This document shows positions 3,916 through 63,991 of a DNA stretch of 64,000 nucleotides, one piece after another; positions within the stretch are counted from its first letter, which is position 1; every line of letters begins with the position of its first letter. The DNA lies in contig JBILTX010000001.1 in NCBI GenBank assembly GCA_044371315.1, forward strand, positions 1,907 to 65,906. The letters are read 5' to 3'. The notes below the pieces were generated by a model, which worked only from the letters and a program-made list of their open reading frames with translations, was not told the DNA's origin and searched no databases. This DNA comes from Alphaproteobacteria bacterium. Its GTDB lineage: Bacteria; Pseudomonadota; Alphaproteobacteria; JAJTHO01; CANGYM01. Made by a program: the position numbers and the translations under genes.

Positions 3916-5895
3916 TTATCCCACCAGACGCAGCAACTGCTGGGGCATCTGGTTGGCCTGGGCAGCAACCCCAACCGCAGCCTGCAGCAAGGCCTGGTTT
4001 TTGTAGAAGTTGCTGGATTCCGCCGCAAAGTCCACATCAACAAACTGACCGTTGGCCGCGTTGCTGTTTTCAATAACGGTGGTTAGGTTGGTGTCGATTT
4101 GGCTGAACCGGCTTTGCAAGGCACCGATTTTGGCGGTGTTCTTGTTCAGCGTGTCGATGGCTTCATCAATCACCCCCTGCGCGGCTTGGGCACGGGCCGC
4201 CGTGTCAATGGCAATCAAATTGGCGCCATTGGCGTCGGTGATGCCCAATTCTTTGGTCGATACAGAATCCAACTCAACAGAGATAAGATCATTGAATGCA
4301 TCCAAACCAACCTGTGTGGTCACAGAGGTTTTTCCAGATTTTTCAACGTCAAAGCGGAATTGGTAGTTGTTGGATCCAAAGGTCACTTGTTGGAACGTTT
4401 CATCAGCGGCAAGGGTCGATGACGTTCTACGCAACTGATCGTTGGTAAAGGTCAATTCCACCCCGTTGCTGAAGGAAACCGTTGTCAAATTGGCATTATC
4501 ATCAATGTCAGACACATCCTTAACTACAGCGTCGTACGTCTGACCCTTTTGATCCTGAATGCGGAATGTGGTTGTGTCCGCATGGGAATCAAAGCTGGAG
4601 GTCAGGGTATACGTGCCGGCGGCTGTGCTGCTGGAGGCTTTCAGGATATTGTCATAACCACCCGCGGTTTGGGCCGTGGAGGTTGTGCCCAGTCCTAAGG
4701 ATGTCAGCGGAGTTCCTACACCGTTGGCAAGCGTAAAGGTCGATGCAGGATCCAGAGAGTATAAAACAAGATTCAATCCTCCGGTACCCGCAGAAGCATC
4801 ATCTCTTAGGGTTGCCGCTACCCCTGTTTGTTCTGAAATAGCATTGATTTTGTCCCGTATGGATCCAATGCCTTCATTGAGCGTAAGAGCTGCTGTAGTT
4901 GCAGATCCAGTGCTTCCCGTAATCGTAATTGTAGCCAGTGCCGCAGCAGCCGAAGGGGTAGCTTCTGTTGCAAAGTCCAAGGTACTGACAACACTGGATA
5001 CAACCGTAGTATCCGATCGGAATGCATTGGCTGTTTCTGTGATGTTGGCAGCGCGGAAGACAACTTCACTGCCCCCTGTGCCCACACCCAGAATTTGTTT
5101 CAGGTCGCTTTCCATGGTGTCTTCAGTTCCTGCTGTGACAACCAAGGCACCGTCAGCGTTAGATATTGTAAACCCATTGTTGTCGTTGGTGGTGCTTTTA
5201 AACTGAATGGTGCTGCCTATTGCTGCGTTTTGCTTCACTTCACCGCGAAAGGTTTCCATTTGGGCACCATTTTTGATATCCATTTCGATGATGTAATTGG
5301 TGTTGGCATCGTTGCGTGTTACGCGTACGTCATCAATGGTCCCCTCAACAGCACCGGTGTAGTTACTAAGGGCAATGTTAGTATTATTAAAGTAAGTTCC
5401 ATCTAAAGTTTGTAAGGAACTGTTTACAATACCAGCAGTGGTCACGTTGGTGCCCGCTTTAAATGTGGCATTGGCACCGCCTGCCAGTAATTTAATGCCG
5501 TTCATTTGGGTTTGGTTCACGGTGTTGTCGATCTGCTTGATCAATTCGCCGAATTCTTCTTGGGAAATCAGACGCTCAGCATCGGACAGGGTTCCGTTCA
5601 CGGCCTGTGTGGACAGGGTTTTCAAACGGGTTAACAATTCACTGACCCGTGTCACACCCCCACCGGCAATCTGCAGCAAGGATGATGTTTGTCCGGCGTT
5701 CACTTTGGCCTGGGTTAATGTGGCAATGTTGGATTTCAATTTGTTAGAAATAGCGAGTGAAGCCGCATCATCCGAAGGGCGCACAATACGCGAACCCGAT
5801 GACAGCTTTCCAACACTGGCAGCGGCATTGCGCGAGTGGATGTTGATATTGGCATTAGCGGCTTCAGCAGAGCTGTTGGTTAAGATACTAGGCAT
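3916..5895 (-). CDS. flagellin (659 aa) with a large central hypervariable domain
   Basis: N-terminal flagellin D0/D1 region (LSSGSRIVRPSDDAASLAISNKLKSNIATLTQA, NAGQTSSLLQIAGG). C-terminal D0 region (NSNAANGQFVDVDFAAESSNFYKNQALLQAAVGVAAQANQMPQQLLRLVG). The middle region is rich in T, S, G and N. Confidence 0.9.
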   Translation of the reverse strand: MPSILTNSSAEAANANINIHSRNAAASVGKLSSGSRIVRPSDDAASLAISNKLKSNIATLTQAKVNAGQTSSLLQIAGGGVTRVSELLTRLKTLSTQAVNGTLSDAERLISQEEFGELIKQIDNTVNQTQMNGIKLLAGGANATFKAGTNVTTAGIVNSSLQTLDGTYFNNTNIALSNYTGAVEGTIDDVRVTRNDANTNYIIEMDIKNGAQMETFRGEVKQNAAIGSTIQFKSTTNDNNGFTISNADGALVVTAGTEDTMESDLKQILGVGTGGSEVVFRAANITETANAFRSDTTVVSSVVSTLDFATEATPSAAAALATITITGSTGSATTAALTLNEGIGSIRDKINAISEQTGVAATLRDDASAGTGGLNLVLYSLDPASTFTLANGVGTPLTSLGLGTTSTAQTAGGYDNILKASSSTAAGTYTLTSSFDSHADTTTFRIQDQKGQTYDAVVKDVSDIDDNANLTTVSFSNGVELTFTNDQLRRTSSTLAADETFQQVTFGSNNYQFRFDVEKSGKTSVTTQVGLDAFNDLISVELDSVSTKELGITDANGANLIAIDTAARAQAAQGVIDEAIDTLNKNTAKIGALQSRFSQIDTNLTTVIENSNAANGQFVDVDFAAESSNFYKNQALLQAAVGVAAQANQMPQQLLRLVG

Positions 5896-56735: not shown

Positions 56736-56758
56736 CCCCCGCGGTTTAAGGGCGGGGG
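56736..56758. terminator. GC hairpin between convergent lptD and the T4SS-like operon (possible bidirectional terminator)
   Basis: CCCCCGC-ggtttaagg-GCGGGGG. The loop contains the stop codon of the minus-strand gene. No clear U-tract on either side. Confidence 0.3.
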
Positions 56759-58296
56759 GATTGTGGAGTCCCCTCTTTGGGGCATGCGGATTCCAGCTCT
56801 TTTTGTTTTTCCCCAATGCGTGTGCTGATGGCACAGGTGATGTTCAGGATTCTGGGATTCCATTGATAATCGGGGTTTTGGGTGTAATAGGTCAAAAATT
56901 GCTGGGCCTTGGCGGCGTAGGCTTTGGCAAAGTTAATTTCCCCTGTCAGCACCCGTAGGGTTTCTCTGGGTTCGTTGGCAGCCAAGGGCAGATAAGCCGC
57001 CGCTTTTTTTTGCAGGTTGGCCTTCCTCTGGGCCAAAGACAGGGGTTTAGGGGACAGACCATCCAGACCCGACTGGTCCACGGTCATGAAAAATATGCTC
57101 ATATCCTCACGCTCGGCCTCAGCCTTGGCCACAGAGGGGGGGACCATGCGGTCATAATCGGCTTTCATGGTTTTCAGGTTTTTGGTGGATTCCTCAACCG
57201 ATCGACGCTGGTTTTGCAAAGCCGACATGAAAATAGTATTGTTTTTTAGGGACGGATCCTTGGCCAAAGCCTCTTCTGCGCGTTCCAGAGACTGTTGCTG
57301 GCGGCGAAGCGCAAAATCCTGACGTTGCATGGTTTCCTCAAACGCCATCCAGTTGAGGGTTGTGGGGTCATACAGTTGGCTGTGCTGTTTTAGGACGTTT
57401 TTCGCCAAGGCCGCGCGGTTTTCCCGCAGCAACCATGCGGGATTCTGGATGCCCGTCTGGCAGGCCAACAGTTGAAACAGGCCGCTGTTGTCAACGGGCA
57501 GGGGACGGTTCATCAAGGCTTTCACCCCGCGGGAAAATTGTTCCGAAAACACAGACCCCGTATCCGGCGTTTTGTTGGGAAAACAGGCGGGAACCTGACT
57601 TTGCATGGCGCCCAGGGTCAATCCGGCATCACTCAGCTGGGTCAGGGTTTCTGTGACGCCAGAGGCCGTCATGTCCATCAACGCGGTCAGCGAGGCCCCC
57701 ATCTGGGCACGCATCAATCCGGCCTGTTCCGCATCACGCTGGCGCATCAGCAAATCATCAAACAGTTTGGGATCCACACCAATGCCGCCCCCCCCATCAA
57801 CAGGGGAGATTTTCAGCGGCCCCAGAACGCTGGGATTGTCCTGCAAAATCTTTTGCATGGCAGAGGCCGAGGAGAGGGGCTGGCTATCGTCTATCGATAA
57901 CGGAATGCCAAAAATTTCACGCGGGGGCATGGGGGTTTGCTGTTTGCAACCCCGAATTTGGCGGTCGTAACGGTTTAGGTCCTGAAAAAATTTTTCGTAC
58001 GCCTGATCGGGTTTCAGGAAATAGGGTTGCAGGGCCTGAAACACAACGGCGTGTTGTTCGTTCAGGGCGATGATGGCCTCTTCATGGCGGATGGCGGCCT
58101 CGAACGTGGCTTGAAAGGTTTGGGGCACGCTATTCCCGCGAATCAGGGTTTCTGTGCTTTGCCACTGGGTGGCGGCGCTGCTGAGCTGACGCGCCTGCGC
58201 TTGGCTTTGCAAACATAGCAGGGTGGGGGTGTCAGGGGGCGCGGCCCCCGCCGAAGTTGCCGTCAAAGTGAACAAAAACAGGGTTAAAAATCGCAT
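56746..58296 (-). CDS. secreted protein (516 aa), last gene of the VirB3/VirB4-like operon
   Basis: Signal peptide MRFLTLFLFTLTATSAGA. No TM helix, Gln/Leu/Ala-rich. No recognisable family. Confidence 0.6.
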   Translation of the reverse strand: MRFLTLFLFTLTATSAGAAPPDTPTLLCLQSQAQARQLSSAATQWQSTETLIRGNSVPQTFQATFEAAIRHEEAIIALNEQHAVVFQALQPYFLKPDQAYEKFFQDLNRYDRQIRGCKQQTPMPPREIFGIPLSIDDSQPLSSASAMQKILQDNPSVLGPLKISPVDGGGGIGVDPKLFDDLLMRQRDAEQAGLMRAQMGASLTALMDMTASGVTETLTQLSDAGLTLGAMQSQVPACFPNKTPDTGSVFSEQFSRGVKALMNRPLPVDNSGLFQLLACQTGIQNPAWLLRENRAALAKNVLKQHSQLYDPTTLNWMAFEETMQRQDFALRRQQQSLERAEEALAKDPSLKNNTIFMSALQNQRRSVEESTKNLKTMKADYDRMVPPSVAKAEAEREDMSIFFMTVDQSGLDGLSPKPLSLAQRKANLQKKAAAYLPLAANEPRETLRVLTGEINFAKAYAAKAQQFLTYYTQNPDYQWNPRILNITCAISTRIGEKQKELESACPKEGTPQSPRP

Positions 58297-58311: not shown

Positions 58312-59505
58312 TTATTTTTGACATTCTTGGGGGACGAAGTAGGTCGGATTATGGCAAACGCTGTTTAGGGATTCGCTCAACAGTTTCATGCTTTGCAGGT
58401 GGGCTTTGTATTGCTCCAGCAGGCTGCGATCGGCCTCCAGATTTTGGATTAGGGCCAGACTGCGGTTAATGCACCCAGAAATTGGCATTTCTATTTCTTT
58501 CAGGCGCAGGGAAAAGTTACCCAATCCCCCCAGATTGACCCCAAGACCTTCCGCTAGGTTGGCTAATCCTTTGATCGTATCCAAAAATTTCTGGGTTGTG
58601 TTTTTATTAAACACCGAATAATCCTCCACACAGGGTTCGTACAGGGTTTTGGGGATGTAATTAAAAAAGACTTCCCGCATGCGGGCATGCACGCGCAGCA
58701 GATCCGAATAGGCATTCATGCTATAGGCCGCGTGGGCCAACGTGGCACTTTTGCACGTATCGATAAAGCATTGTTTTTGTGCGGTAAACACCGTGTTATT
58801 GCGACAGTCTTTCTTCAAATCCATCATCTGTGCCAGATTGTTTTGGGCACAATTCATGATGTATTGGGTTTTTTGGGCGGGGGTGATTTGTTTTTGTTGG
58901 ATGGCCAGTTCCGCCAAACTTTCGCAGCGCAAACACCCGAAATCTGTGGGGGCGCCCCCTGTTTGGGTGGATGCCTCAATCAGGGCTTTGATTTTTTTAT
59001 CGGGCATGCCGATGGCGTTTTTGATACCGCTGAGCAAATAATACTGCTCGCCCCGTTGTTGCAACAGGTAATCCAGTTGGGCAGAGGTATCCTTAAACTC
59101 CTTCACCCGCAGGGTTTCATAAAACTGCCGACTGCCCGGCAGCATGGTCAGGTCCGTCACACAAAACCCCGTTCCGCACCAGAGGGCATTGCAGGGGATA
59201 TACATGTGACAGAGATTGGTCCCAGGGAAGGGGGGCGTTTGTTTACAGACGCACGGTCTGGTGGACGACAGAGGGTAACAAATCCCATCCACACACGGCT
59301 CCAACGGACTCACCGGCACAATGGGCGGCGGCGGGACAGAGGGCACATATGCGGGCGGCCCCTTTAACCCCAACAAACTGGTGGCCGCTCCAGCCGCTCC
59401 GGCGACCTTAGAGGCCCCCGATGCCACCGCCGTCGGATCAACGGCCCCCGCCCCCGCCGATATCCCCAGCATCAGCAAAAACAGGATCAGATGGCGCATG
59501 ATCAA
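58312..59505 (-). CDS. Cys-rich secreted protein (397 aa, 18 Cys) with an N-terminal Pro-rich linker
   Basis: Signal peptide, PPAYVPSVPPPPIVPVSPLEP linker, then clustered cysteines (CVDGICYPL, PCVCK, LCHMYIPCNALWCGTGFC). Confidence 0.6.
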   Translation of the reverse strand: MIMRHLILFLLMLGISAGAGAVDPTAVASGASKVAGAAGAATSLLGLKGPPAYVPSVPPPPIVPVSPLEPCVDGICYPLSSTRPCVCKQTPPFPGTNLCHMYIPCNALWCGTGFCVTDLTMLPGSRQFYETLRVKEFKDTSAQLDYLLQQRGEQYYLLSGIKNAIGMPDKKIKALIEASTQTGGAPTDFGCLRCESLAELAIQQKQITPAQKTQYIMNCAQNNLAQMMDLKKDCRNNTVFTAQKQCFIDTCKSATLAHAAYSMNAYSDLLRVHARMREVFFNYIPKTLYEPCVEDYSVFNKNTTQKFLDTIKGLANLAEGLGVNLGGLGNFSLRLKEIEMPISGCINRSLALIQNLEADRSLLEQYKAHLQSMKLLSESLNSVCHNPTYFVPQECQK

Positions 59506-61205
59506 TCAGTCGCTTGATAGACAGGGGCTCCACTTTCAATCAGATCCCCCAGACTGGCACAGGCATTTTGCAAAATCACCTGTTCGGTGTTGACGTTGGT
59601 CATGACCAGATTGTACATGGACAGTCCGATCAGGACGTTCATTTGGCTCATCACCGAACCTTCGGCCAAGGAAGAGGCCTGTAACAGGGCGATGGAGGGG
59701 CAGAGTTCTTTGCCGCTTTTTGTGTCATAAAATTGGACTTTTTCGCATCGTTTTGGGTTCCCAGTGCCGGTGAACAATTCCTGAAACATTTTGGCGGGAA
59801 TTTGTTGTTTGCTGATGGCCGCGGCGGCGCAGCGGGATTTGAGCTGGCCTAGAAACAGACGTTTATTCGCCTCTTCGATCTGTTTGCATTTGGTGGTGCT
59901 GTTGTTGGCCATTTTGGGGTTGCATCTCAGCATGCTGAGCAAAAACTTTGCAATATCTGCGGTGTTTAGCGTTTGGTTGGGTGGTAGATTGGTTGTCCCC
60001 GCCAACGGGGTGTCTTTGGATAACGGGCCGGTTCGGAAAGAGTCTTCTGTCGCTCCCGCGACATCACCGAGCTGCGCTAAGACATTAGGGAAATCTGTTC
60101 TTGTCCCCATGGCCTCAAGGACGGGGAGACCAAACAGTCCTGCAAAATCATAGAACATACTTTTCAATGATCCTGCTGGTCCGGTGACTTCATCAGACAA
60201 TGCAAATCCCCCTTTGAGCAAACCACTACCAATTAAAAATCCTTGGACGGATCGGATGTAGGTCGTTAGTTGGCCCGCATCGAAGCCTTGGCCGCCCCCG
60301 AATGTCCCCACCAATGTAAAAATAGCCCCCCCGATTTGACCAATTTGCCCTATGTTTTTGGTGATGTCTGGGGAGAGGGCAATCCCAAATTTCCCCAATA
60401 CATCGGGAAGGTTTGTGAGGAAATTGAGACCCGATTGTGCGCAATTCAGGCCTCCGCCCTGACAGTTCCCTTGCAGACCTTGGAGGGCATAGTACGTATC
60501 GCCCAAATTCTCGCTCAGGTCTCGTACTTGTCTGGTAAACTTGGCAATATTGCCGAGGGGGTCGGATGGTTTCGCGATCAATGAGTCTTTCAGCGTGTAT
60601 CCTAGGGTGGCATTGGTGGAGGCAGATGGATCAAAGGCCCCGCTAAAGTCACCGGCAGGAGCAGGTACGTCAACGAGGGCGGGGGCAGAGGGATCAAAGG
60701 GATTAGGAGGCGTAGCCGTTCCCTGAGTAGGGGCCGGCGTCCCCGCCGGCGTAGAGGTAGCCGGTGTCGCCGCCGGAGCAGGGGTGCCAGATGTCGCCGG
60801 CGTAGTAGCCGGAGCAGCAGCGGCATTCACCTTTGCTGCCGCCGCTGGGCCTTCTCTTATGGCGTTATATGCAATGGAATCGCTGGTATAGGCGGCGTAC
60901 AATGAACTGGAAAATTCAGCCAAAATTGTGTCAGTGGTGGGGATGTCTTTTGCTTCCGCTGGGGCTTGGTATTTAATAGCCCCCAGAATCTTAGTTAGGG
61001 TTTCGTTTGTTGTTTTTTGGGCATTGTTCAGCTCAAGAAGCTTAATATTGAGATTGGCCAATGCAATGACTTGGCTCGTCAAAAGTGTCTGCGCCTTTGT
61101 ATCAGACACCATCACCACGGGCAGGGCAGAGGCCCCGTAAACGGGCATCAGCACCATTTGCAGCACCATCACATAGCATAACGTCCGTCGAAAGAGGGAA
61201 AGCAT
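59502..61205 (-). CDS. secreted protein (567 aa) with a coiled-coil N-domain, Pro/Ala/Thr low-complexity linker, and Gly-rich/Cys-containing C-terminal part
   Basis: Signal peptide, a heptad-like segment (QVIALANLNIKLLELNNAQKTTNETLTKILGAIKYQ), the AAAAPATTPATSGTPAPAATPATSTPAGTPAP linker, and GQIGQIGGAIFTLVGTFGGGQGF. Confidence 0.6.
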   Translation of the reverse strand: MLSLFRRTLCYVMVLQMVLMPVYGASALPVVMVSDTKAQTLLTSQVIALANLNIKLLELNNAQKTTNETLTKILGAIKYQAPAEAKDIPTTDTILAEFSSSLYAAYTSDSIAYNAIREGPAAAAKVNAAAAPATTPATSGTPAPAATPATSTPAGTPAPTQGTATPPNPFDPSAPALVDVPAPAGDFSGAFDPSASTNATLGYTLKDSLIAKPSDPLGNIAKFTRQVRDLSENLGDTYYALQGLQGNCQGGGLNCAQSGLNFLTNLPDVLGKFGIALSPDITKNIGQIGQIGGAIFTLVGTFGGGQGFDAGQLTTYIRSVQGFLIGSGLLKGGFALSDEVTGPAGSLKSMFYDFAGLFGLPVLEAMGTRTDFPNVLAQLGDVAGATEDSFRTGPLSKDTPLAGTTNLPPNQTLNTADIAKFLLSMLRCNPKMANNSTTKCKQIEEANKRLFLGQLKSRCAAAAISKQQIPAKMFQELFTGTGNPKRCEKVQFYDTKSGKELCPSIALLQASSLAEGSVMSQMNVLIGLSMYNLVMTNVNTEQVILQNACASLGDLIESGAPVYQATD

Positions 61206-61254: not shown

Positions 61255-63705
61255 TTAAGAATCGCTGTCAAGGTAGATGTTCAGCCAGTCGGATTGATAA
61301 TTGTGCATTAACCGCTCAGCCAACGCGCGGGAGGGTTCATCGGAATAATAAATCCGCATCAATCGGCCCAGCGGGGACAGGTCCGTGTCCAGAATGATGG
61401 ATTCCCCGCTGGCGCGTTTCATCAACACAGAGCGTTTCAGTTTTTTGGCGGCGGGCAGTTTGCCGCTGATGTATAGCCATTCCCGCTCGGTTAATCCCCA
61501 GTCCTGATATTCCCGCGCTTGGCCTTGGGGGTTGGGAAAGAAAAATGTGGTTTGCGCTTGGCCACGGATGGCCTCGCCCAGGCCGGCTTGGGTGATGGCC
61601 TCGGGCCGCTGGAATGCCGAAATGACGGCGCCGCGGCGTTTTCGATATTCCTGCAACATCTGCAAAAAATAATTCCGGAAAATGGGGTGTTTCACCACGG
61701 GTTCCGTTTCGTCAATGAAAATCAGGGCAGGGGCCTTTAATTCGGAAATCGTATCCTGAATCCGGTGCATCAGATACAAAATCACGGCCCGCGCCAAATC
61801 ATCGTGTTCATACAACCGCGTAAAATCCAGCGCCACAATGCGGGATGTTTTTAAATCTAGGGTGTCCTGCTTGGCATTAAAAATCTTTCCATAAACGGCG
61901 GGGTCCACCCATTTATGAAGATTTTTTCGCACCATGCCGCCTTTGCTGTACACCGCATCATAAATGTTGGCCAGCGATCGGCGTTCGTGTGGCAGGCCCG
62001 GTGTGTCATATGCGGCCTCAATAGAAAACCCAATTTCCTCGATGGCATCGGCGTCTTGGCATTCTGAAATGGCCTGCAAAAAGGCCCTGAGAAACGATCG
62101 GTTCGATGGATTATCTTTCAGCTGAAACGGATTCATGGACGATTGAATCCCGGGGATGTTGGATCCCTCAAAGGTCACATAACTGCCCGAGGTCGCGCAG
62201 GTAAACAGGTATCCCCCCCCGTGCCGATCCACCATATAATAGCGCAGATCTTCATGCCGCATGGCCATGCCCGCCAGAAAGTTGATCAGCGTGGTTTTTC
62301 CCCCTCCGGTGGGGCCAATGCTGACGGCGTGGGCGACGGCGGCTTTTTCCTCAGAAATATGAAACTGAAAGGCATAGGGTGTGCCAGAAATGGTCCGAAA
62401 GTTGGCGATGGCCCCCTTGCCCCAATCCGAGGAGCTCAGGCCCGGAGATGGCCGCTCAAACGTCAAATGTGTGGCAATGTTTTTGGAAAACAGTTTATAG
62501 GGGCGCGGCCATAATTTAAAACTGGGGAATTGCAAAAACCAGCTGGCTTGGGCGACGGCGCCCTCTCGCACCACAGAAATGCCGTAAGTGCTGGCGATGC
62601 GCTTGACTTCGGCTTCGGTGGCTTCCATTTCGTCTACGGTTTTGCCATAGCAAAACACCATCATCATGTATTGTGACAACACGTTGGTGCCGCCGGTGTT
62701 GCCCTCCACCGCATCCAGCGCGGTTTCAAACTGGGCGGCGGTGCCGGGACTGAACCGTTGGGCCAGTGACAGTTTGTATTGGTGGGTGATATGGATGGCG
62801 GCCTTGGTTTTGGTCCAAGGTTCAATGATGTGGGAAACAATAATTTCCCCGTGAACGGTGTTTAGCGAATTGACATAGGCTTCGTACGTAAAATCCCCCA
62901 ACGCCCGCAGACCCACGCAGCAGGCATAGAGTTTTTTATGGCCGGATGTAAAGGTAATGCCCCCATCATCCCCCCCAAATTCCACCTGATCGCCGCAAAT
63001 GGCATCCGATGCCCCATCCCCCACGCCCCCAGGCACGGGTTGAGAAATCGGGCTGACAATCCGCGAAAATACATAAAGGGGACGCATTTTCACATCGGGA
63101 TGGCCCTGCTTCATGACCACGGGCCCATATTTATGCAAAATGTTGCTGGTGATATCGATAACGGAATTGAGTTTTTTTTGGGATGTTTGATCTTTATCGG
63201 GCAAAGAAAAAACAACAAACTGGCGGTTGCTATAGGCGCGGGCAAAGGTGCCGTTCCAACGTCTGGCAATTTCCCGCAAAACAGGGTTGGCGTGGGTGGT
63301 GGGGGGGGCGACGTCCACCCGCTCGCGGATGGTAAAGGCCCGAATGGTGACATGATAATCCTGCAGGGCATCGATCCAATCCTTTCGCGCCAGCAGCAGC
63401 ATTTCCCGATCATGGTCACTCATGAACGTATCATCAAAACCCATCATTTCCACACATTGCGCCAAATCCCCATTTTTACAGGCGATGGTTTTCCCGTCGC
63501 TGAGCACCTTTTCAAAAGGCAAAACATCCGCCAGACGATCTTCTTTGGGATAGGGCAGCAAAATGCGGGCCGTGGTGGGAATCAAAATGGCCGCAAAGGC
63601 CACCCCTGCGGCAATAACCCCCAGCAGGGTCAAAAGAATGGAAGTCAGGCTGAAGTTTTCGGAAAACGCCGCCAACACATCGGGGGATAACGACTCAGGG
63701 AACAT
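61255..63705 (-). CDS. VirB4/TrbE/TraC-family type IV secretion ATPase (816 aa)
   Basis: Walker A GPTGGGKTT, Walker B ALIFIDE, and the C-terminal VirB4 blocks ISAFQRPEAI and QTTFFFPNPQ. Hydrophobic N-terminal segment. Confidence 0.9.
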   Translation of the reverse strand: MFPESLSPDVLAAFSENFSLTSILLTLLGVIAAGVAFAAILIPTTARILLPYPKEDRLADVLPFEKVLSDGKTIACKNGDLAQCVEMMGFDDTFMSDHDREMLLLARKDWIDALQDYHVTIRAFTIRERVDVAPPTTHANPVLREIARRWNGTFARAYSNRQFVVFSLPDKDQTSQKKLNSVIDITSNILHKYGPVVMKQGHPDVKMRPLYVFSRIVSPISQPVPGGVGDGASDAICGDQVEFGGDDGGITFTSGHKKLYACCVGLRALGDFTYEAYVNSLNTVHGEIIVSHIIEPWTKTKAAIHITHQYKLSLAQRFSPGTAAQFETALDAVEGNTGGTNVLSQYMMMVFCYGKTVDEMEATEAEVKRIASTYGISVVREGAVAQASWFLQFPSFKLWPRPYKLFSKNIATHLTFERPSPGLSSSDWGKGAIANFRTISGTPYAFQFHISEEKAAVAHAVSIGPTGGGKTTLINFLAGMAMRHEDLRYYMVDRHGGGYLFTCATSGSYVTFEGSNIPGIQSSMNPFQLKDNPSNRSFLRAFLQAISECQDADAIEEIGFSIEAAYDTPGLPHERRSLANIYDAVYSKGGMVRKNLHKWVDPAVYGKIFNAKQDTLDLKTSRIVALDFTRLYEHDDLARAVILYLMHRIQDTISELKAPALIFIDETEPVVKHPIFRNYFLQMLQEYRKRRGAVISAFQRPEAITQAGLGEAIRGQAQTTFFFPNPQGQAREYQDWGLTEREWLYISGKLPAAKKLKRSVLMKRASGESIILDTDLSPLGRLMRIYYSDEPSRALAERLMHNYQSDWLNIYLDSDS

Positions 63706-63991
63706 ATTTTCGGGTTCCGGGCTTTCCCTTAATCAAATTGCGCGTGGATCGCTTGCTATAGGCCCATGCGGGGAGCAGGGTCGCCATATGGGGTTCCTTG
63801 GCCCCTTGCGCCGCCAAAACCATATGGAAAAAAATCAAAGAAATGATGATCAACAGGGGGCTGACCTTAAACAATCCCCATGCATACACAATACCCAAGG
63901 CATGAAAGCCCATATTGATAATGGCGGGCATCATCGGTGCCCAAAACAGTGTGGCCGGACTGGCAACAGCGCGCATGACTTTTTCTGGCAT
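63695..63991 (-). CDS. VirB3/TrbD-like small inner-membrane protein
   Basis: 98 aa with two hydrophobic helices and an RAVASPATLFWAP N-terminus. It overlaps the VirB4-like gene by 11 bp, the typical virB3-virB4 coupling. The start is close to the window edge. Confidence 0.55.
   Translation of the reverse strand: MPEKVMRAVASPATLFWAPMMPAIINMGFHALGIVYAWGLFKVSPLLIIISLIFFHMVLAAQGAKEPHMATLLPAWAYSKRSTRNLIKGKPGTRKYVP

Follow-up and report, generated by a model that had tools for sequence, protein, structure and literature searches.

Tip proteins of the VirB5 type start the growth of pili in type IV secretion systems (T4SSs) and make the first contact with the target cell, and they are the T4SS parts most often missed by homology searches. 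Here we describe a 64,000-nucleotide stretch of DNA from an Alphaproteobacteria bacterium (assembly GCA_044371315.1, contig JBILTX010000001.1, positions 1,907 to 65,906; hereafter the window), in which a cysteine-rich open reading frame (ORF), o397, is the second gene after virB4. Its product is probably an accessory subunit of a chromosomal VirB-type T4SS, one that is confined to its lineage and evolves rapidly. Tentatively, and stopping a little short of calling it probable, we take o397 to be a divergent, disulfide-stabilized, variable subunit that occupies the slot of a VirB5 paralogue, is associated with the tip or the stalk of the pilus and lies exposed to the target.

Several described systems are comparable with this locus. 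VirB5 is a subunit of the pilus tip and stalk that sits on a pentamer of VirB6 (PMC9259494, PMC12857230). A VirB5 equivalent of the F plasmid was proposed as late as 2026: TraH, which shares less than 3% identity with VirB5 and resembles it only in a locally conserved N-terminal helix-loop-helix, was assigned to the pilus tip (bioRxiv 10.64898/2026.07.31.741991). In Bartonella, VirB5 is described as having recombining alleles, with helices that are conserved and loops that vary (PMC3391547), and the Bartonella Trw system serves as a model of amplified, variable surface parts (PMC12857230).

The window holds a minus-strand string of five genes, virB3, virB4, o567, o397 (the fourth) and o516, with a convergent lptD next (Table 1). 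Three unannotated exported proteins, o567, o397 and o516, thus directly follow virB3-virB4; pairwise BLASTP among them detected no paralogy. The VirB4 protein scores 338 bits against TIGR00929 (VirB4_CagE) versus 48 bits against TIGR02746 (TraC-F-type), and on these profile scores the system is assigned to the VirB4/CagE type, not to the F-type TraC. Gene order is kept as virB2(xN)-virB3-virB4-o567-o397-o516 in all seven homologous loci with context, so that the co-localization with virB4 which the first-pass annotation had suggested looking for was found throughout; homologues confined to surroundings other than a T4SS, the outcome it had named as telling against its proposal, are clearly not what these loci contain. 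The same stretch carries flagellin, IleRS, COX1, thrC, ndk and lptDFG. These genes, several of them housekeeping, show the host to be a flagellated aerobe and its T4SS operon to be chromosomal, not carried on a plasmid or an obvious integrative and conjugative element. The label "conjugative", applied earlier, is not established for a lineage whose T4SS is chromosomal and flanked by housekeeping genes.

The first-pass annotation had described a secreted ORF with 18 cysteines and a PPPP linker inside the VirB4 operon, and this description held: the signal peptide, the linker (VPPPPIVPV) and the dense cysteine cluster that it quoted are all present. Its size of 397 amino acids is correct for the ORF counted from a TTG, but the likelier start is the ATG at 59499, 2 bases past the o567 stop, giving a protein of 395 amino acids. 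This shorter form is the one used by o397 homologues and by the public annotation, where the product is a "hypothetical protein". The mechanical TTG start at 59505 overlaps the o567 stop codon (region 59497-59505), and no obvious Shine-Dalgarno sequence precedes o397, which fits translational coupling with o567. At the N-terminus, MIMRHLILFLLMLGISAGAGA/VD, an AGA cleavage site is predicted without a lipobox cysteine. Beyond the signal peptide come the PPPP linker, the cysteine cluster, a ..GFCVTDLTML.. stretch and the helices, in that order, and in distant homologues residues 22-69 (Ala/Gly-rich and poly-proline) vary or are missing in part. With a 19-residue Kyte-Doolittle threshold, no transmembrane segment is found beyond the signal peptide. 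A VirB6/TrbL identity, which calls for at least five transmembrane helices, was rejected on this basis. Identity as VirB7 was rejected as well, since the protein has 395-397 amino acids, carries no cysteine near the cleavage site and is not a lipoprotein, and the readings as a lipoprotein or as an effector lacking a signal peptide have topology or size against them.

Table 1. Positions of the genes and protein segments discussed; coordinates without a locus number refer to the window.
Feature	Locus	Coordinates	Strand	Evidence or remark
virB3		63695..63991	-	PF05101 E 3e-4; position and synteny
virB4 ATPase		61255..63705	-	TIGR00929 1e-100, PF03135
o567, first gene after virB4, exported		59502..61205	-	ORF list
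o397, Cys-rich ORF		58312..59505	-	ORF list; stop codon 58312-58314
o397 residues 1-21, Sec-type signal peptide (MIMRHLILFLLMLGISAGAGA)		59443..59505	-	sequence reading; kept in homologues
o397 residues 22-69, Ala/Gly-rich stretch and poly-proline linker (VDPTAVASGASKVAGAAG...VPPPPIVPV)		59299..59442	-	
o397 residues 70-116, N-terminal cysteine cluster, 8 Cys		59158..59298	-	
o397 residues 117-397, predicted all-alpha body, 10 Cys (6 invariant)		58315..59157	-	
o397 residues ~335-391, C-terminal module (MPISGCINRSLALIQNLEADRSLLEQYK...NPTY)		58333..58503	-	hhalign
o516, third gene after virB4, N-terminal signal-like sequence		56746..58296	-	
Cys/Pro-leader VirB5 paralogue on plasmid	L013	15956-17242		Microvirga pMVF16-3, WP_203447095
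Cys/Pro-leader VirB5 paralogue on plasmid	L015	10168-11652		Erythrobacter aureus, WP_162815014
Cys/Pro-leader VirB5 paralogue on plasmid	L016	10190-11575		Sphingosinicella, WP_129392753
Clade lipoprotein	L007	15046-15237		
Clade lipoprotein	L008	14394-14558		
Clade lipoprotein	L010	14668-14841		
Clade lipoprotein	L012	14960-15148		
Clade lipoprotein	L013	17406-17582		
Clade lipoprotein	L015	11905-12111		
Secretin/PilB/PilC stretch	L008	16743-18368		
Secretin/PilB/PilC stretch	L009	17757-22472		
Secretin/PilB/PilC stretch	L012	17183-22445		
Secretin/PilB/PilC stretch	L024	12254-18048		

Cysteine makes up 4.5% of o397 versus a background of 1.2% across the 54 non-overlapping window ORFs of at least 150 amino acids, the highest content of the 54 (binomial P ~3e-6). 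Eight of the 18 cysteines cluster within residues 71-115 (71, 76, 85, 87, 99, 105, 110 and 115), and ten are scattered along the remaining chain (191, 194, 219, 234, 246, 251, 292, 345, 384 and 395); C191, C194, C219, C246, C292 and C345 are invariant. Their number is even (14, 16 or 18) throughout the 25 full-length members of the family that were counted, namely the o397 of the window, 22 database homologues, L004b and L006b. Changes also come in pairs: C251 and C384 are both Tyr in one shared set of three sequences, C110 and C115 are jointly lost in P0028 and likewise in P0029, and C234 and C395 were gained jointly in the sub-clade of the window. Because counts are even and gains and losses go two by two, the cysteines are taken to be disulfide-bonded outside the cytoplasm, and as far as comparison of family members can establish it, mature o397 is an extracytoplasmic protein with paired cysteines, predicted to be held by 7-9 disulfides.

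Homologues of o397 are few. A word-indexed search of 5.8 billion proteins returned 31, all at least 56% identical, and searching 1.84 billion cluster representatives exhaustively with a profile brought in nothing more than fragments of this family. Neither search found a homologue outside the virB operon context. The genomes concerned are metagenome-assembled genomes of uncultured freshwater Alphaproteobacteria from Lake Mendota and elsewhere, and by these searches the family appears as an orphan without detectable relatives outside one freshwater lineage, its C-terminal module excepted.

Evolution of the locus is uneven. Among orthologues in five related loci, the ratio of nonsynonymous to synonymous substitution rates (dN/dS) was 0.29-0.35 for o397, 0.03-0.06 for virB4 and 0.05-0.08 for lptD. 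As the ratio is below 1, o397 is a real, functional gene, and these estimates put it under purifying but relaxed selection, with a dN/dS 5-10 times that of virB4 and lptD. Within the lineage VirB4 is 94-99% identical; identity falls to 60% for o397, 66% for o516 and 48% for the hypervariable o567 (range 48-63%). Between the window and locus L002 the o567 products are 51% identical and VirB4 99%, and the synonymous rate dS is 0.88 for o567 and 0.26 for o397, versus 0.12 for virB4 and 0.16 for lptD. Raised dS in o567 and o397 over their flanks points to allele replacement by recombination at a hypervariable locus. Within o397, residues 117-135, 151-165 and 331-375 are near-invariant; 226-240, 271-285 and 301-330 (Gly-rich) are hypervariable, and the cysteine cluster at 70-116 diverges fastest between sub-lineages (34-51% identity). 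By analogy, such conserved cores with hypervariable stretches and raised dS resemble the variable, recombining VirB5 of Bartonella.

What the slot of o397 holds elsewhere can be read from VirB4 relatives at 32-66% identity to the window VirB4, which sit in clusters of common order: after virB2(xN), virB3 and virB4 come between one and five exported proteins lacking annotation, then a small lipoprotein, virB8 and virB9. The gene that directly follows virB4 in these clusters encodes VirB5. For L015a, on an Erythrobacter plasmid, the PF07996 match (6.8e-7) clears the curated cut-off, and a profile of nine first-after-virB4 proteins matches TrwJ/VirB5 of R388 at 2.4e-4. The next non-membrane gene encodes, in many of the clusters, a signal peptide, a short Cys/Pro leader, a VirB5-like domain and a C-terminal extension. 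Leaders include QLGVCPTLVPPPCIVID, PLCCPTPCPVID and CPLCP, with a pattern ..PPPC[IP]V.D (e.g., PPPCIVID). By phmmer these second-gene proteins, with 2-18 Cys and 428-929 amino acids, are tied to the first-gene class (L013a-L013c 1e-7, L024a-L024b 1.6e-9, L009a-L027b 3e-5). Besides the three plasmid-borne examples in Table 1, whose VirB4 is just 32-36% identical to that of the window, there are metagenomic ones (L009b, L011b, L024b and L027b), and all are annotated "hypothetical". The annotated start in the L015 and L016 paralogues leaves out both signal peptide and leader. In L008 and L022 the second genes (257 and 287 amino acids) have a similar leader, their link to VirB5 being a 12-column motif match only. 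The plasmid operons of L013, L015 and L016 have no polytopic VirB6 in the virB4-virB8 interval. Being the second gene for an exported protein to follow virB4, and having a Pro/Cys leader behind its signal peptide, o397 has the layout of this paralogue group and occupies a slot equivalent to theirs.

Only the C-terminal module of o397, about 50 residues, has detectable similarity outside the lineage. It resembles the C-termini of genes in the same region of L007 (second of three) and L010 (third of five), with hhalign E-values of 4e-4, 7e-4 and 5e-3, and L007b and L010c match each other at 3.5e-4; a search with the L007 gene of the o397 slot found itself only. The next gene, o516, is orthologous to L010d and L010e together (hhalign E 3e-5 and 1.4e-4) and to L007c. 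It corresponds to two adjacent L010 genes (L010 13090-14546), through gene fusion or split.

Several results weigh against placing o397 with VirB5. No match to the VirB5/TrbJ family (PF07996, NF010452) was obtained at E<=1. Alignment with hhalign to VirB5 alignments of the clade reached E 0.04-0.15, across 17-32 columns next to the signal peptide, a clade VirB5-domain hidden Markov model (HMM) ranked o397 only 191st of 474 window ORF pieces, and an HMM of the VirB5 N-terminal motif returned E=96, while the positive controls worked: L015a and the clade profile gave the PF07996 and TrwJ matches reported above. No homology could be demonstrated between o397 and VirB5, nor between o397 and the Cys/Pro-leader paralogues, the o397 family giving hhalign E 0.43 against L011b/L020b/L024b, 0.05 against L013c/L015b/L016b/L009b, and 0.0056 against L008b/L022b, the last confined to the signal-peptide and leader region. 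Likeness to the leader motif comes down to short patterns chosen by eye: three o397 segments fit hydrophobic-P-V-x-D (AVDPTAVA at 22-29, where P0027 has VPVAD; FCVTDL at 114-119; PCVEDYSVF at 291-299), and with hhalign E 0.04-0.08 and the motif HMM at E=96 they were not counted as evidence. Structure prediction was of little help here. The AlphaFold check proposed in the first-pass annotation did yield models from AlphaFold2, of the full-length protein (16 sequences) and of the helical domain (35 sequences), but their low confidence, with predicted local distance difference test (pLDDT) scores of 40 and 51, makes them unusable; both are modeled as all-alpha with three helices of 40-50 residues, and Foldseek found nothing in the PDB at E<=0.001 for either. 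Finally, no VirB6 and no VirB8-11 of this lineage came to light near the operon, leaving a complete machine and its pilus putative, and the better VirB5-like N-terminus belongs to o567 (ALPVVMVSD...; PVPVID in L004), which aligns weakly with the VirB5 N-terminal helix (hhalign E 0.01). A VirB5 C-terminal pattern, D[LM]R.D...N[TA], that fits o397 at 229-238 (DLKKDCRNNT) was designed post hoc, was unsupported by the HMM and was likewise discarded.

Since the VirB5 role may thus already be filled by o567, it should be considered whether o397 is instead a periplasmic factor for T4SS assembly or scaffolding, like F-type TraU, TraW or TrbC, neither located at the tip nor related to VirB5. Export, many disulfides, operon linkage and the lack of VirB5 homology would all suit such a factor. 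A housekeeping part of this kind should nevertheless change as slowly as VirB4, whereas o397 has the far higher dN/dS and hypervariable stretches described above; moreover the system is not of the F type, and the o397 family shows no similarity to the F-plasmid proteins TraU, TraN, TraH, TraW, TrbC and TraF, with hhalign E of 0.24 or worse for all six (0.24-0.7 reported; TraU 0.25, TraN 0.24, TraH 0.5). We regard an assembly factor as unlikely. The comparison with TraU and TraN offered in the first-pass annotation is not supported, given the type of the system, the hhalign values and the lack of any match to TraU (PF06834), TraN or TraH in Pfam or NCBIfam.

Scans of o397, o567 and o516 against all of Pfam and NCBIfam gave no match, including for o397 the VirB5 and VirB7 families that had been put forward for it, and PDB sequences searched with phmmer and with a profile (hmmsearch) likewise yielded none for any of the three. 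The want of homology to any T4SS family, and the fact that the rest of the T4SS was not seen near the operon, would fit a protein of the envelope or surface that is unrelated to the T4SS, plays no part in it and only shares its transcription unit. This we consider very unlikely. The 2-nt spacing from o567 is kept across sub-lineages only 58-60% identical in o397, the L007 and L010 genes with the C-terminal module are found after virB4 and before the lipoprotein, virB8 and virB9 genes, and no homologue was found outside the operon context.

Three consecutive exported, helical, fast-evolving operon proteins could also be the freight of the system and not part of it: Sec-exported cargo, toxin- or adhesin-like and released in two steps, or a ClyA-like pore or translocon set. 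There is a precedent in Ptl, with a Sec-dependent, disulfide-bonded T4SS cargo, pertussis toxin, proposed as a VirB5 substitute (PMC12857230), and the ClyA-family proteins AhlC, AhlB and SmhB are the top Foldseek matches of the pLDDT-40 model. Those matches are non-significant, at E of at least 0.25 on a weak model, and were not used as evidence. The Pfam and NCBIfam scans showed no toxin domains, and matching slots on conjugative-type plasmids (Microvirga, Erythrobacter) hold structural parts of the VirB5 family. Cargo or a pore set is in our view distinctly improbable.

We return to o397 as a variable subunit in a VirB5-paralogue slot. The precedent of TraH is the reason why a VirB5-like role survives failed sequence and fold searches. 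The earlier suggestion of a novel exported T4SS component, maybe surface- or pilus-associated, stands in so far as operon linkage in 7/7 loci, paired cysteines and a VirB5-like slot favor it; its surface or pilus part belongs with the VirB5-like fold, tip or stalk location and adhesive role that we infer. In the mechanism we propose, o397 would be exported by Sec and then oxidized in a DsbA-type manner. The conserved helix-loop-helix after the cysteine cluster (residues ~117-180) would dock it, singly or jointly with o567 and o516, into the stalk of the T4SS or the tip of the pilus. Variable helical loops and the Cys-knot N-terminus would then be exposed, and may mediate and diversify contact with the target cell.

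The clusters of the relatives have a further feature, more unusual than o397 itself. In L008, L009, L012 and L024, whose VirB4 is 48-59% identical to that of the window where measured, the lipoprotein, virB8 and virB9 (CagX) are followed by a secretin (PF00263), a PilB-like ATPase and a platform protein, with no VirB10, VirB11 or VirD4. In L009 the secretin part includes TcpQ and PAP_PilO. Next in order are a protein of ~190 amino acids, a PilB-like ATPase of ~600 amino acids (T2SSE+MshEN) and a T2SSF PilC-like platform, and L011 and L012 have Peptidase_A24 and SLT genes upstream. Canonical VirB10-VirB11 order is seen in the more distant L013, L015 and L016 (plasmid) and L027 (metagenomic), with VirD4 in L013 and L027. 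The virB/secretin clusters represent either a hybrid of T4SS and type IVb pilus or a tight juxtaposition of the two, and our searches of the literature turned up no description of a VirB/secretin hybrid. The lipoprotein of the clade, 54-68 amino acids with a lipobox followed by ..PEPVGIG..ELKRSPCACIE.PQ.., always stands before virB8 and is presumably the VirB7 equivalent of the clade; it belongs to no Pfam or NCBIfam family and is not present in the window.

Combining these features, o567, o397 and o516 might form a new heteromeric, antigenically variable tip or translocon complex on a T4SS/type-IV-pilus hybrid lineage, one whose nearest relatives swapped VirB10, VirB11 and VirD4 for a secretin, a PilB-like ATPase and a PilC-like platform. 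Only the innermost helix-loop-helix would then be VirB5-like, and the disulfide-knotted N-terminus of o397 would be the exposed receptor-binding module. Taken as a whole this joint reading is doubtful, and we judge it decidedly unlikely.

Two neighboring features deserve mention. Four to five tandem TrbC/VirB2-like pilin paralogues lie upstream of virB3 in L006 (2969-5418), with an equal virB2-like layout in L004 (3403-5433) and L034 (212-1837); the corresponding region lies just past the right end of the window. Such a tandem array recalls the multiple VirB2 copies of Bartonella Trw and Anaplasmataceae. The flagellin of the window has 659 amino acids (Flagellin_N/C; 3916-5895, minus strand).

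The locus and its relatives form a natural series, from a recognizable VirB5 through Cys/Pro-leader paralogues to an unrecognizable disulfide-rich orphan, which could show how tip proteins diversify. It also makes o567, o397 and o516 candidates for target specificity, in conjugation, effector delivery or adhesion, in an abundant, uncultured freshwater alphaproteobacterium. Practical value is limited pending a structure or localization of o397.

Set beside VirB5/TrbJ (PF07996; TrwJ of R388, TraC of pKM101), o397 is alike in being Sec-exported, helical and encoded near virB2-virB3-virB4, with conserved helices, variable loops and fast evolution with recombination. It differs in the absence of a significant sequence or profile match, in being ~170 amino acids longer, in its 18 Cys versus 0-5 in the VirB5-family proteins sampled, and in a segment of ~95 residues, rich in Ala/Gly, Pro and Cys, before the helical body. 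Its gene is also the second after virB4, not the first as for VirB5; the first place is held by o567. The known VirB5 fold is an elongated helical bundle (TraC 1R8I, TrwJ 7O3V); the o397 models are all-alpha but of low confidence. With the Cys/Pro-leader paralogues o397 shares the slot after the VirB5 gene, the signal peptide, the leader and a long helical region, whereas they keep a phmmer-detectable VirB5-like domain and o397 has none. F-type TraU (11 Cys), TraN (22) and TraH (7) are, like o397, exported Cys-rich T4SS components, but show no hhalign or Pfam similarity to it and belong to a system of the F-type TraC. In Helicobacter pylori, CagL, CagI and CagH are several variable exported proteins encoded next to virB4. 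Neither for Cag nor for Bartonella Trw is a sequence relationship to o397 shown, and the bacterium here, unlike theirs, is an uncultured freshwater one with no known host. What the operon of this lineage does have in common with Trw, with its amplified, variable TrwL/VirB2 and TrwJ/VirB5, is multiple upstream VirB2 paralogues and several variable exported proteins by virB4, a combination that, by analogy, suggests a variable surface structure.

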